Shown in pieces: positions 28,967 through 34,036 of a stretch of 64,000 nucleotides of DNA. The position numbers and the translations under genes are program-made. The stretch's first letter is position 1, and each line of letters begins with the position of its first letter. The DNA is taken from assembly GCF_041248615.1 (NCBI RefSeq), contig NZ_CP158426.1. One strand, written 5' to 3'. Under the pieces are notes generated by a model. That model made no database searches, had not been told where the DNA came from, and saw nothing but the letters and a program-made list of their open reading frames with translations. Source of the stretch: Escherichia coli (GTDB lineage: Bacteria > Pseudomonadota > Gammaproteobacteria > Enterobacterales > Enterobacteriaceae).

Positions 28967-29203
28967 ATGTCTCGACTAATCACTTTACAGGACTGGGCTA
29001 AAGAAGAATTTGGGGACTTAGCACCAAGTGAGCGAGTTCTGAAAAAATACGCGCAAGGGAAAATGATGGCCCCACCCGCTATAAAAGTTGGTCGCTACTG
29101 GATGATTGACCGAAATTCCCGTTTTGTAGGAACGCTTGCAGAACCGCAACTCCCAATAAACGCAAACCCAAAACTCCAACGGATAATCGCTGATGGCTGC
29201 TAG
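28967..29203 (+). CDS. xis: excisionase
   Basis: 78-aa ORF overlapping the int start; Xis/AlpA-like KVGRYWMI motif. Confidence 0.75.
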   Translation: MSRLITLQDWAKEEFGDLAPSERVLKKYAQGKMMAPPAIKVGRYWMIDRNSRFVGTLAEPQLPINANPKLQRIIADGC

Positions 29204-30335
29204 ACCCCGATCTCACAAAATCTCTATACCCAATTTATATTGCAAATTAGATAAGCGAACCGGAAAGGTATATTGGCAATACAAACATCCACTATCCGGT
29301 CGTTTTCATAGCTTAGGAACTGATGAGAATGAAGCAAAACAAGTTGCTACTGAAGCAAATACCATTATTGCTGAACAACGTACCCGACAAATATTAAGCG
29401 TCAATGAGCGTCTAGAAAGAATGAAAGGCAGGCGCTCAGACATTACGGTGACAGAATGGCTTGATAAATATATTTCTATCCAGGAGGACAGGCTGCAACA
29501 TAATGAACTAAGACCCAACTCCTATCGGCAAAAAGGCAAACCCATTCGTCTTTTCCGTGAGCATTGTGGAATGCAACACCTCAAGGATATTACCGCACTT
29601 GATATTGCCGAAATAATTGATGCTGTAAAGGCTGAAGGTCATAACAGGATGGCGCAAGTCGTGAGAATGGTGTTGATCGACGTCTTCAAAGAAGCACAAC
29701 ACGCAGGACATGTTCCGCCAGGATTTAACCCAGCGCAGGCAACAAAACAACCGCGAAATCGAGTAAACCGCCAAAGATTATCACTGCCCGAATGGCAGGC
29801 AATATTTGACAGCGTAAGCAGACGGCAGCCCTATTTAAAATGCGGGATGCTACTTGCTCTTGTCACTGGACAACGTTTAGGCGATATCTGCAATTTGAAA
29901 TTCTCTGATATCTGGGACGACATGTTGCACATTACTCAGGAAAAAACCGGTTCAAAACTTGCTATTCCGCTTAACCTGAAATGCGATGCTCTGAATATTA
30001 CCCTTCGTGAAGTTATATCTCAGTGCAGGGATGCTGTTGTTAGTAAATATCTGGTCCATTACCGTCACACTACCTCTCAAGCAAACAGAGGAGACCAGGT
30101 GTCTGCAAATACTCTTACAACGGCTTTTAAAAAGGCCAGGGAAAAATGTGGCATAAAATGGGAGCCAGGAACTGCGCCCACATTTCATGAGCAGCGATCT
30201 CTGTCAGAACGGTTATATCGGGAACAGGGTCTGGATACGCAAAAGTTGTTAGGTCATAAATCCAGAAAAATGACCGACCGATACAATGATGATCGTGGTA
30301 AAGACTGGATTATCGTAGATATCAAAACAGCATAG
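29193..30335 (+). CDS. int: tyrosine integrase (e14/phage 21 icd-targeting type)
   Basis: 380-aa ORF with C-terminal catalytic region (HEQRSL...LGHKSRKMTDRY); adjacent to the icd 3' end. Confidence 0.9.
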   Translation: MAARPRSHKISIPNLYCKLDKRTGKVYWQYKHPLSGRFHSLGTDENEAKQVATEANTIIAEQRTRQILSVNERLERMKGRRSDITVTEWLDKYISIQEDRLQHNELRPNSYRQKGKPIRLFREHCGMQHLKDITALDIAEIIDAVKAEGHNRMAQVVRMVLIDVFKEAQHAGHVPPGFNPAQATKQPRNRVNRQRLSLPEWQAIFDSVSRRQPYLKCGMLLALVTGQRLGDICNLKFSDIWDDMLHITQEKTGSKLAIPLNLKCDALNITLREVISQCRDAVVSKYLVHYRHTTSQANRGDQVSANTLTTAFKKAREKCGIKWEPGTAPTFHEQRSLSERLYREQGLDTQKLLGHKSRKMTDRYNDDRGKDWIIVDIKTA

Positions 30336-30448: not shown

Positions 30449-31699
30449 TTACATATTCTTGATGATCGCATCACCAAACTCTGAACATTTCAGCAGCTTA
30501 GCGCCTTCCATCAGACGTTCGAAGTCATAGGTTACGGTCTTCGCATTGATTGCGCCTTCCATACCTTTAACAATCAGGTCTGCGGCTTCAGTCCAGCCCA
30601 TATGGCGCAGCATCATCTCAGCGGAGAGAATAATAGAGCCAGGGTTAACTTTGTCCTGACCGGCATATTTCGGCGCAGTACCGTGGGTGGCTTCAAACAG
30701 GGCGCATTCGTCACCGATGTTTGCGCCTGGGGCGATACCGATACCGCCGACCTGTGCAGCCAGAGCGTCAGAAATGTAGTCACCGTTCAGGTTCATACAG
30801 GCGATAACATCATATTCAGCCGGACGCAGCAGGATCTGTTGCAGGAATGCATCAGCAATCACATCTTTAATGACGATCTCTTTGCCGGTATTCGGGTTTT
30901 TAACTTTCAGCCACGGGCCGCCGTCGATCAGTTCACCGCCAAACTCTTCACGCGCCAGCTGGTAGCCCCAGTCTTTAAACGCGCCTTCGGTGAACTTCAT
31001 GATGTTGCCTTTGTGCACCAGGGTCACAGAGTCACGATCGTTAGCAATTGCGTATTCGATCGCGGCACGGACCAGACGTTTGGTGCCTTCTTCAGAACAC
31101 GGCTTAATACCGATACCGCAATGTTCCGGGAAGCGAATTTTCTTCACGCCCATCTCTTCACGCAGGAATTTAATCACTTTCTCGGCGTCGGCAGAGTCAG
31201 CTTTCCATTCGATACCCGCATAAATGTCTTCCGAGTTTTCACGGAAGATAACCATATCGGTCAGTTCAGGATGTTTAACCGGGCTTGGGGTGCCCTGATA
31301 GTAACGTACCGGACGCAGGCAGATGTAGAGATCCAGTTCCTGGCGCAGGGCAACGTTCAGAGAACGAATACCGCCACCAACCGGAGTGGTCAGAGGGCCT
31401 TTAATGGCAACGCGATATTCACGAATCAGATCAAGGGTTTCAGCAGGCAGCCAGACATCCTGACCATAAACCTGTGTGGATTTTTCACCGGTGTAAATTT
31501 CCATCCAGGAGATTTTACGCTCGCCTTTATAGGCTTTCTCGACTGCAGCGTCGACCACTTTCAGCATGGCTGGGGTTACATCTACACCGATTCCATCACC
31601 TTCAATGTAAGGGATAATCGGATTTTCAGGAACGTTGAGTTTGCCGTTTTGCAGGGTGATCTTCTTGCCTTGTGCCGGAACAACTACTTTACTTTCCAT
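30449..31699 (-). CDS. icd: isocitrate dehydrogenase (NADP), with prophage-associated 3' end
   Basis: 416-aa ORF, full-length Icd; C-terminal residues ...[20 protein letters not shown]. Confidence 0.95.
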
Positions 31700-31870
31700 T
31701 CACCTCTCCTTCGAGCGCTACTGGTTTGCTCGTCTGCCACCACGTTGCATATGCGTTTGCGTCCTGCGATACGGATGCATTAGAGCAATTTTTTGTTAAT
31801 GATTTGTAATTGGCTTGTCAATACTACCCTATTGTTTGCCGTCATGAAAGATGCGCGTTATTAGGCTATA

Positions 31871-32014
31871 ATGCGGCAATTCATAATCTCTGAAAATACC
31901 ATGCAAAAAACTTCTTTTAGACCAAAGACAGTATTTTTCAGACCTTCAAATAAGGCATTAAATATCAATAAGTTACACCAGTTTTTAAGCAATAAAAAAA
32001 ACCACCAGAGATAA
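31871..32014 (+). pseudogene. displaced 5' fragment of rluE (first ~17 codons, then unrelated sequence)
   Basis: ATGCGGCAATTCATAATCTCTGAAAATACCATGCAAAAAACTTCTTTTAG encodes MRQFIISENTMQKTSF, which matches the E. coli K-12 RluE N-terminus as I recall it; the reading frame then diverges. Confidence 0.5.
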
Positions 32015-32160
32015 CTAACAGGATGCTATTTGGTCAAAATTTGACATTACTCGACTCAGCGACTATCTCACTTTGAGCACTATTGGGAAAATTATCAAAA
32101 GTCATGGTTGAAGCGACAAGCAACGAGTAAATTATGGCATCCCCCCTTTTTGAGGTTCAC

Positions 32161-32247
32161 ATGAAACGCTTTGCACTGATAGCTGTGAAACTCGTTGCCT
32201 TTACTGGTTCTGCATCTGCTGCAACCGAAGAAATCAACTTCAAGTAA
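32161..32247 (+). CDS. 28-aa mini-ORF resembling an isolated signal peptide
   Basis: MKRFALIAVKLVAFTGSASAATEEINFK with GAGG 5 nt upstream; same reading frame as the downstream 149-aa ORF, separated by two stop codons. Confidence 0.3.
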   Translation: MKRFALIAVKLVAFTGSASAATEEINFK

Positions 32248-32280
32248 CAGAAACACTATATAACAATGGAGTGTTGACAA

Positions 32281-32730
32281 ATGGATACTACCGAAGAACG
32301 CAATGGAACATATTTCTACAGAGGACACCCGAACCTGTCCAAAATAGAACTACTCAACGTCATATTCCTTGAAGAATTCTGTAAGGAATTGGGGATTGAT
32401 TCGGTATCAGGTGCAGCAATCTTATCTGGTCAACCGTGGCTGGGTACAAGAGCGAAGCCGCAAGGGGCAACCCTGGGAACAAGTGTTGTCTCAAAGTATG
32501 CGCGTATACTGATGAGAGATGCACGCATGCCTTTTGGTATTTCTGTTCATACACCAGTGGGTGTAAGGATGCAGAAATCTAATAAGCTTGCTGCAATTAT
32601 CGCTCGTTGGGTCCCGTGGATTGGTTGGGCTTCACTGTCGATGAGTCTTTACAGGGTTTCGACTCGTACCCAGGAAAAATACAATCTGATTGCCAAACCT
32701 CAAGACCGTATTAAGTGGACTTCCTTCTAA
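32281..32730 (+). CDS. hypothetical protein (149 aa), first gene of an overlapping pair
   Basis: ORF-track entry; no family assigned. Confidence 0.55.
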   Translation: MDTTEERNGTYFYRGHPNLSKIELLNVIFLEEFCKELGIDSVSGAAILSGQPWLGTRAKPQGATLGTSVVSKYARILMRDARMPFGISVHTPVGVRMQKSNKLAAIIARWVPWIGWASLSMSLYRVSTRTQEKYNLIAKPQDRIKWTSF

Positions 32731-33065
32731 TGGCGACAACAATCACAGACGAAGTTTTAGCACTGTTCCGTGATGAGATTCCAGGTTATCAGGATGACCA
32801 CGGGAAGGAAATTCCGTTAGAACTGGACTCTGATTTGTTCGACTATCCACGAGATGATTTAGAGGACGCTATACGGAAATACAAAGAGAGGTTTGGGATT
32901 AACCTGGATAATCTGGACTGGTCTTTGTACCTTCCATGGGAGTCTGCACCATTGCTTCAACGATGGTTCAAGCTCAAGCGGGAAGAGGTAGAAACAACAC
33001 GTTTACCGTTAACTGTACGGATGTTTGCAGAATCAGCAGAAGCGGGAAAATGGCTGTATCAGTAG
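32715..33065 (+). CDS. hypothetical small acidic protein (116 aa), overlapping the upstream ORF by 16 nt
   Basis: ORF-track entry; acidic composition; no family assigned with confidence. Confidence 0.55.
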   Translation: MDFLLMATTITDEVLALFRDEIPGYQDDHGKEIPLELDSDLFDYPRDDLEDAIRKYKERFGINLDNLDWSLYLPWESAPLLQRWFKLKREEVETTRLPLTVRMFAESAEAGKWLYQ

Positions 33066-33397
33066 AATAAAAAAGAAGGCTGCGATGCCCCTCTTATTAC
33101 TGCTGTTGATGGTAGTGGTAAAGCATCATCCTGAACTTGAACAGTGAAGTGCTGTCACCCATCAGTAATACAGAAACACTATTTTTCATACCAGTATTTA
33201 TTCAATTCATCAATGTAAAATGTGTTCATTGGGCCATATTTATCACCATGCAGCCACACAACCGCTGCTCACTAACCCAGGTATTGATGAAACCGCGCTG
33301 AAGAGCCTGAACCCTGAACCTCTAACGAGTACCTTAAAAGTCCAATGCAATCCGACACTGTGCTACCCTCTGCGTATAGCTCTATTTGGAATTTACC

Positions 33398-34036
33398 ATG
33401 AAATACTTTAGCGATTCTAAATCTTCTTTTAGAAAAAAACAGGTTAGTCGACTAAACTCGCAACACTCCACTAAGCGTAAACCTGAAAACCAGCCCACGC
33501 GCGTGATCCTGTTCAATAAACCCTACGATGTTCTTCCGCAGTTCACCGATGAAGCCGGACGCAAAACATTAAAAGAATTCATCCCGGTTCAGGGCGTTTA
33601 TGCAGCAGGTCGTCTTGACCGCGATAGCGAAGGGTTACTGGTGCTGACCAATAACGGCGCGTTGCAGGCGCGTTTAACCCAGCCGGGTAAACGCACCGGA
33701 AAAATCTATTATGTGCAGGTGGAAGGTATTCCCACACAAGACGCACTTGAAGCCTTGCGCAATGGCGTAACCTTAAATGATGGCTCTACCCTGCCCGCAG
33801 GCGTAGAGCTGGTTGACGAACCCGCGTGGTTATGGCCGCGGAATCCACCAATTCGTGAACGCAAAAGTATTCCCACCAGCTGGCTGAAGATCACCTTATA
33901 TGAAGGACGTAATCGCCAGGTGCGCCGCATGACCGCCCATGTTGGTTTCCCCACGCTGCGACTGATTCGCTATGCGATGGGTGATTACTCTTTGGATAAT
34001 CTTGCCAATGGCGAATGGCGAGAAGCGACAGATTAA
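33398..34036 (+). CDS. rluE: 23S rRNA pseudouridine(2457) synthase
   Basis: ORF 33386-34036; ATG at 33398 ([15 protein letters not shown]...); from residue ~20 onward matches K-12 RluE as I recall it. Confidence 0.85.

Follow-up and report, generated by a model that had tools for sequence, protein, structure and literature searches.

[quoted passage not shown] A gene pair in the 64,000-nucleotide stretch of Escherichia coli DNA analysed here (the window), encoding a 149-aa protein of the STM2901 family and a 111-aa DUF1493 protein, has relatives of the same design: at 26 of 48 related loci an hcp gene, a gene for a small (149 aa) putative effector and a tightly coupled small gene stand together, away from the main T6SS clusters. 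The likeness has its limits, as the window copy lacks hcp and its toxin domain has no relation to either Tae4 or the toxins of the Hcp-ET modules. The Hcp-ET/ETI modules are a further T6SS arrangement of hcp, effector and immunity genes (10.1101/2024.03.05.583533). Two other described systems come close. The RHS/YD-repeat polymorphic toxins carry at their C-terminus the same domain as the window's 149-aa protein, whereas in the window this domain is a protein by itself, with a start codon of its own and a family-specific MDTTEE.NG N-terminal cap, and with no RHS, PAAR or VgrG sequence attached. Displaced CdiA-CT/CdiI or Rhs-CT/RhsI cassettes resemble the window pair in being split from their delivery gene and in occupying a small AT-rich islet in a minority of strains. 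Such displaced orphans, however, usually lack a start codon and have a partial delivery gene upstream, while the toxin gene of the window is complete and there is no hcp remnant.

The short open reading frame (ORF) immediately upstream of the pair, here called the mini-ORF, recalls the Sec leaders of small periplasmic proteins of enterobacteria (DUF1471/BhsA family, SodC), with which its product has in common an MKR n-region, a hydrophobic core, an Ala-X-Ala motif and acidic residues after the cleavage site. It differs from these leaders in that no mature domain follows (8 residues only) and in that the core of the window allele carries a Lys. The original prediction for this locus had left three options for the mini-ORF, namely the severed start of one secreted protein that includes the 149-aa ORF, the remnant of a DUF1471/BhsA-like gene, or an independent small peptide, and had asked whether the 149-aa protein is periplasmic.

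Comparison among related loci settles that the apparent leader is no part of the 149-aa protein, and that the latter is not a Sec-exported, periplasmic protein. Moreover, STM2901 and DUF1493 proteins, which are annotated by family name only, behave like a T6SS effector/immunity pair and may represent a candidate family of antibacterial toxins, present in about 7% of those complete E. coli genomes that were searched. The explanation put forward here, that the two ORFs are unrelated, that STM2901/DUF1493 is an orphan toxin/immunity module and that the mini-ORF is a non-functional relic, has as a whole about an even chance of being right. For the most part the finding is an ordinary one that would not surprise a specialist in polymorphic toxins. 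The features are collected in Table 1.

Table 1. Features of the mini-ORF, the putative toxin/immunity pair and the surrounding islet, in window coordinates
Feature	Coordinates	Strand	Remarks
Stranded K-12-type rluE start	31871..31921	+	ATG 31871 and 16 codons; aligned to an island-free genome annotated from the same ATG
AT-rich islet, 1.5 kb	31922..33433	.	Contains mini-ORF, putative toxin gene and putative immunity gene
Upstream in-frame ATG and Shine-Dalgarno-like motif	32134..32160	+	ATG 32134; GAGG 32150-32153
Mini-ORF, signal-peptide-like	32161..32247	+	28 codons and TAA; without RefSeq annotation
Spacer, 33 nt	32248..32280	+	Second in-frame stop TGA 32275-32277; GGAG ribosome-binding site of toxin gene 32268-32271
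149-aa STM2901-family protein, toxin-type domain, putative Hcp-carried T6SS effector	32281..32730	+	NCBIfam NF045926
111-aa DUF1493 protein, putative cognate immunity protein	32730..33065	+	Pfam PF07377, E 1.1e-29
rluE, island-bearing form	33398..34036	+	RefSeq annotation of a 100%-identical genome; substitute N-terminus from right end of islet

The STM2901/DUF1493 pair and its neighbours

The 149-aa ORF, named 'STM2901 family protein' in RefSeq (32281-32730), matches the NCBIfam profile NF045926 at 156 bits (cut-off 110), and the whole of the profile (1-140 of 140) falls on residues 8-142. Most of its 66 full-query homologues in the database are exactly 149 aa long, and the few gene calls of 160-171 aa owe their length to N-terminal extensions from upstream ATGs that are neither hydrophobic nor signal-like. 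When each GTDB species was represented by one genome, a scan yielded 48 related loci in the Enterobacterales. At all 48 the protein starts MDT(T/I/V)EE, a start that is near-invariant even where the remaining protein is at 35-45% identity, and DNA similarity between the window and the related loci begins at 32280/32281. The AF2 model of the protein is moderately confident (pLDDT 74); comparison of its fold gave no informative match, and PADLOC, searched for anti-phage defence systems, matched neither the toxin nor the DUF1493 protein.

The wider family was collected with an exhaustive profile search of the STM2901-type domain over 1.84 billion representative proteins (E<=1e-3). Among the 527 matches are many in which profile positions from about 10 to 140 form the extreme C-terminus of a longer protein. 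In the RHS-core proteins P0101, P0112 and P0145 the domain follows a YDPxxGRF...DPxG motif and a Gly-rich linker (RHS motifs identified by visual inspection), and in such fusions it occupies residues 266-394 of 396, 411-545 of 548 and 187-322 of 325, behind the RHS core motifs. That is, the STM2901-type domain recurs at the end of delivery scaffolds, the mark of a C-terminal domain of polymorphic toxins, and the 149-aa protein would be a stand-alone version of such a domain with a DUF1493 partner, and a putative toxin. Four other proteins (P0113, P0117, P0132, P0162) have the toxin domain behind Cys-rich N-terminal regions of 140-290 aa, and Pfam found no match in the N-terminal parts of the longer fusion proteins. 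One of the four, P0162, starts with a lipoprotein-type signal (MKRDVFIKRMVAITGGSMLLGC) ahead of its unrelated N-terminal region of 290 aa; some distant relatives of the toxin domain are thus probably Sec-exported, by way of a different architecture. A further observation concerns the N-terminus itself: all stand-alone members of the family have an almost invariant MDT(T/I/V)EE.NGTYFY start, and the part shared with the RHS-fused relatives begins at about profile position 10. The first ten or so residues may be a tag of the hcp-linked stand-alone forms, for instance for loading onto Hcp, or a recombination anchor for the exchange of cassettes.

The gene downstream, a 'DUF1493 family protein' in RefSeq (32730-33065), matches PF07377 at 103.6 bits (threshold 21) over profile positions 3-107 of 108. 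In the window its start overlaps the stop of the toxin gene (TAATG). At 46 of the 48 loci the toxin gene is immediately followed by a DUF1493 homologue, the exceptions being a contig end and a truncated gene. Adjacent to the toxin gene and in the same orientation, it has the placement of an immunity gene, and immunity is its putative function. Its product has an acidic N-terminus. It also lacks a signal peptide, and this lack implies a target in the cytoplasm or the inner membrane. In the literature searched on DUF1493, STM2901, STM2902, PF07377, PF26636 and the WP accessions there were incidental mentions only and no functional work; a paper on the PIX delivery domain and one on the Enterobacter pan-genome contained nothing specific to the pair.

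Upstream of the toxin gene the neighbour at the 26 loci referred to above is a full-length hcp gene of 160 aa, encoding the T6SS tube protein (PF05638, E 8.5e-33) and ending about 12-17 nt before the toxin start. Two further loci have a partial hcp in this slot, and hcp lies within 3 kb at 36 of the 48. In the two species inspected for this, the hcp-toxin-immunity trio is inserted on its own, with helicase or fimbrial genes around it. This linkage is present for the family and absent for the window copy, as the 64-kb window holds no hcp, hcp remnant or other T6SS gene. Some loci (L016, L032 and L033, also L038, L039 and L041) consist of tandem or inverted arrays of STM2901-type and DUF1493 genes interleaved with full or partial hcp genes, and at some of these hcp lies downstream of the toxin/DUF1493 pair; the arrays suggest turnover of cassettes at these sites.

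The linkage to hcp, the linkage to DUF1493 and the C-terminal fusions to RHS proteins are the grounds on which the pair is read as an Hcp-carried T6SS effector with its immunity protein. The toxin would be made in the cytoplasm and neutralised there by a cytoplasmic immunity protein, and would be exported, if at all, as cargo of the Hcp tube in type VI secretion. Judging from these gene associations, cytoplasmic synthesis and export by T6SS/Hcp, not by Sec, can be proposed with moderate confidence. The islet in the window, having no hcp, would then be an orphan module, probably retained mainly for the immunity gene, or else making use of an Hcp encoded elsewhere.

Sequence, alleles and distribution of the mini-ORF

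The mini-ORF runs from ATG 32161 to TAA 32245-32247, and its product, MKRFALIAVKLVAFTGSASAATEEINFK, can be divided into the n-region MKR, the core FALIAVKLVAFTG, and a c-region SASA followed after the possible cleavage site by ATEEINFK. A GAGG motif lies 5 nt upstream of the ATG. The in-frame ATG at 32134 would give a 37-aa ORF (32134..32247), the version chosen by gene callers (P0067-P0070); across 10 alleles the region 32134..32160 has no substitutions and varies only in the length of a poly-C run, and the spacer 32248..32280 is variable in 3 of its 33 columns. ATG 32281 lies 120 nt after ATG 32161, and the mini-ORF and the 149-aa ORF are therefore in the same frame, so that read-through would give INFK, stop, QKHYITMEC, stop, QMDTTEE. 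The layout originally described for this region holds for the mini-ORF itself, its TAA and the shared frame; the second stop is the TGA of 32275-32277 and had been misplaced at 32272. Such a shared frame has a prior probability of one in three, and it is lost in the outgroup, Escherichia sp. E1V33, where the mini-ORF is in frame 2.

By a crude heuristic for Sec signal peptides cleaved by signal peptidase I (SPase I), the positive n-region and a cleavage site between ASA and A are present, and the hydrophobic core of the window allele is interrupted midway by Lys10. A mature passenger domain is lacking, in that 8 residues and then TAA follow the leader in all E. coli alleles. The core is uninterrupted (Thr10) in 4 of 9 aligned E. 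coli sequences and in the outgroup, and since Thr10 is common to the outgroup and these four alleles the Lys of the window is probably the derived state. Short ORFs that satisfy the heuristic number 8-12 in the real 64-kb window against about 3-4 in a shuffled one, and for the window allele to pass, one charged residue has to be tolerated in the h-region; it fails the strict version. The likeness of the mini-ORF to a signal peptide exceeds chance only weakly; when the GAGG motif and the intergenic position are taken together with the other features, a chance origin becomes mildly unlikely, though not compellingly so.

The 28-aa product is found in the window and in YDC107, 98198, 1428 and AF57. 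A 30-aa form, MKRFALIAVTLVAFTGSSSASAATEEINFK, occurs in XJ5.2 and 100416 (and with V12I in ET201), a 26-aa form, MKRFALIAVTLVAFTGSAATEEINFK, in AST85, and a 35-aa form, MKRFALIAVTLVALLVQVLHLLQPKESTSSTRNTI, in the outgroup. The length changes in E. coli are of plus or minus 6 bp and fall within a repeat of the hexamers TCTGCA/TCTGCT; at 32206-32223 and its counterparts (L052-L059) this repeat reads TGSAA, TGSASAA or TGSSSASAA in products of 26, 28 and 30 aa, and the protein database also holds a TGSGSAA variant. In E1V33 the frame changes after codon 13 owing to a 1-nt deletion, and TAC stands in place of TAA; the tail differs, and the ORF is out of frame with the toxin gene. No E. coli allele examined (9 genomes, 4 protein clusters and 9 metagenome contigs) has lost the GAGG, the ORF or the TAA. 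Among ten alleles the variable sites of the mini-ORF are K10T, V12I, E24G and the stop-to-Tyr change, that is, no synonymous and three nonsynonymous differences besides the change of stop; the immunity gene, by comparison, has 16 variable sites, of which 9 fall on third codon positions. Taken as a whole, the upstream segment has accumulated as much as 4.5% substitutions together with 1-4 indel events; for the toxin and immunity genes the figure is 0-2.7%, and they have no indels.

A block of 104 nt (32085-32188) that covers the start of the mini-ORF has no substitutions over the 10 alleles. Within the left 212 bp of the islet (31922-32133) all 20 variable substitution columns are at or to the left of 32084, and the 160 bp to the left of the block are hypervariable. 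The block includes a minus-strand promoter-like site (32119..32091, TTGTCG-17-GATAAT), ATG 32134, the GAGG motif and codons 1-9 of the mini-ORF, and it could be a recombination breakpoint or a constrained region for regulation or translation start.

Apart from the 374 island-bearing E. coli genomes, the mini-ORF was found in Escherichia sp. E1V33 alone. A tblastn search of the 48 related loci and of the whole window detected no counterpart, nor is there one in the DNA that precedes the other 47 toxin genes. A reconstructed 40-aa peptide, searched against 5.8 billion proteins for a parent gene, retrieved nothing but this E. coli ORF itself, in four clusters, and a codon-degenerate scan for MKRFALIAV over 241 million metagenome records retrieved nine copies of the same ORF and no parent gene. 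Thirty-two other metagenome ORFs, mostly longer, open with MKRFALIAV (three of them with one substitution) and then diverge, and on account of these unrelated continuations the opening must be regarded as generic. For the 28-aa product Pfam gave no family at E<=1, and NCBIfam only a 12-bit match to the SodC leader; RefSeq has no feature annotated over the mini-ORF. The suggestion that the leader is what remains of a DUF1471/BhsA-like gene finds no evidence in the Pfam result or in the protein database, which holds no longer homologue, and an origin from SodC was likewise set aside for want of a significant family match.

Two further candidate origins were considered. Weak, roughly collinear tblastn matches on the minus strand had raised the possibility of an hcp remnant, but on six-frame translations the Hcp profile reached -0.9, where the null was -0.8 (p=0.48), and this origin was rejected. 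The tail of the mini-ORF might also be taken for a decayed duplicate of the 5' end of the toxin gene, as ATEEINFK(Y) and DTTEEINGTY have ACCGAAGAA in common; the similarity is at the level of chance in DNA (p=0.17), the peptide value (p~0.03) was obtained post hoc, and such a duplicate is not supported.

Relation of the mini-ORF to the toxin gene and its possible origins

One account of two ORFs in one frame, with only two stops between them, is that of one ancestral Sec-secreted protein that has suffered two nonsense mutations, and the distant fusion relative P0162 shows that a signal can precede the domain, although there it stands before the unrelated 290-aa region. The comparison of homologous loci by which the original prediction proposed to decide the matter refutes this idea. 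None of the 48 loci has a leader before the MDT(T/I/V)EE start, the NF045926 profile lies wholly inside the 149-aa ORF, the stop codon of hcp lies upstream at 26 of the 48, and DNA homology ends at ATG 32281. Moreover, the 33-nt spacer holds a normal ribosome-binding site, the frame relation is lost in the outgroup, and the resemblance of ATEEINFK(Y) to the family's N-terminus is at chance in DNA and marginal and post hoc in peptide. It can be stated with high confidence, from the sequences compared, that the two ORFs are unrelated, and a common origin as one secreted protein is extremely unlikely. The 149-aa protein is not made periplasmic by the mini-ORF leader.

What the mini-ORF itself may be is less sharply decided. 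Tentatively, and at slightly less than an even chance, it is read as the relic start of a lost gene for an exported protein. It lies in the islet's lineage-specific, AT-rich leader of 360 bp, where a Shine-Dalgarno motif and a Sec-type signal peptide would have been left behind when the body of the gene was lost during assembly of the islet, and it would now be drifting, of which the Lys in the core, the slippage of the hexamer in the c-region and the frameshift in the outgroup are taken as signs. This relic reading implies a parent gene, yet none turned up among the 5.8 billion proteins or the 241 million metagenome records, and the intact ORF, GAGG and TAA, the in-frame length changes of the E. 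coli alleles and the invariant 104-nt block also fit a functional small gene. An unlikely alternative, though one to be reckoned with, is a chance ORF in AT-rich foreign leader DNA that was never a gene. Three to four signal-peptide-like short ORFs arise in each shuffled 64-kb window, the window allele fails the strict heuristic, the Ser/Ala 'c-region' is a hexamer repeat of the DNA, there is neither a homologue in the protein database and metagenomes nor a coding signature, and the MKRFALIAV opening has arisen convergently in the 32 other metagenome ORFs. Against chance alone stands the co-occurrence, in intergenic DNA, of a well-spaced GAGG, a positive n-region, a 13-residue core (in the Thr alleles), ASA before A and acidic residues; for that combination over the window's intergenic DNA a rough estimate is ~0.03-0.3.

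Rather unlikely, too, is a genuine small gene, co-transcribed with the pair, whose product of 26-35 aa would be exported and cleaved to an 8-residue peptide or would be a single-helix protein of the inner membrane. Small membrane proteins with a single helix are a common class in E. coli. Throughout the E. coli alleles ORF, Shine-Dalgarno motif and stop are intact, every length change is in-frame and the start region is invariant, and even the frameshifted outgroup retains an open ORF of 35 aa with a longer hydrophobic helix. Yet slippage of a 6-bp repeat explains the in-frame indels, no synonymous change balances the three nonsynonymous ones and the change of stop, the C-terminal tail of the outgroup is wholly different, and no homologue exists beyond a 1.5-kb islet that 7% of E. 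coli genomes carry, nor at the 47 other toxin loci. In a more specific form, which seems improbable, the mini-ORF would be a very young gene of the Escherichia islet, its exported or membrane-anchored peptide of 26-35 aa modulating, for example, the membrane or the toxin; if true, a small protein would here have arisen, or survived, in the leader of a toxin module obtained by horizontal transfer. Less probable again, indeed very much so, is a regulatory leader (uORF) controlling the toxin/immunity operon 33 nt downstream. The mini-ORF adjoins the ribosome-binding site of the toxin gene on its 5' side, its start region is conserved, and ACACU (32253-32257) can form a small hairpin with the GGAGUGU in which the toxin's Shine-Dalgarno sequence lies. 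The fold is no stabler than those of shuffled sequences, however (z = +0.60 over 171 nt, and z = -1.31 over 76 nt, where 21 of 200 shuffles were as good), Rfam has no match at E<=1, there is no terminator-like site between the ORFs, and 47 other loci manage without a mini-ORF and with hcp instead. No conserved RNA structure, which would mark a leader peptide or attenuator, was found in the mini-ORF region.

The islet and the 5' end of rluE

The islet that carries the pair is present in 374 of 5,426 complete E. coli genomes (~7%), and island-free genomes match the window only up to 31921. Its GC content is 0.34-0.47 against about 0.51 in the flanks. In the window icd lies on the minus strand (30449-31699), followed on the plus strand by rluE, nudJ and mnmA, and the islet interrupts the coding region of rluE at its 5' end, so that a small islet that splits and re-caps this gene is documented here. 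The stranded start, close to a promoter-like site at 31844-31872, reads as an ORF of 47 aa (31871-32014). An 11-bp direct repeat, CTTCTTTTAGA, flanks the insert at 31911-31921 and 33423-33433; these are its sole two copies in 64 kb, where 0.04 would be expected. A new start for rluE, in frame, comes from the right end of the islet at 33398. The 330-bp spacer before rluE contains no remnants of further modules. RluE of the window is only 94.6% identical to the K-12 type, and for this reason a divergent lineage may be the source of the whole tract.

With the left segment of the islet (359 bp) as a blastn query against E. coli genomes and plasmids, matches were confined to the islet: 374 island-bearing records, one of them a plasmid, with a further plasmid copy in a separate plasmid collection. 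The record CP088590.1, described as a 175-kb 'non-mobilizable plasmid', has the left segment at 147944-148303 with 99.7% identity, and this copy may be a mis-assigned chromosomal fragment or a real transfer. On the other side of icd, a site-specific integrase gene (29193-30335) directly adjoins the 3' end of icd, the classic attachment site of e14-type prophages, and in the identical RefSeq genome an excisionase gene precedes the integrase; foreign DNA therefore flanks icd on both sides in this strain.
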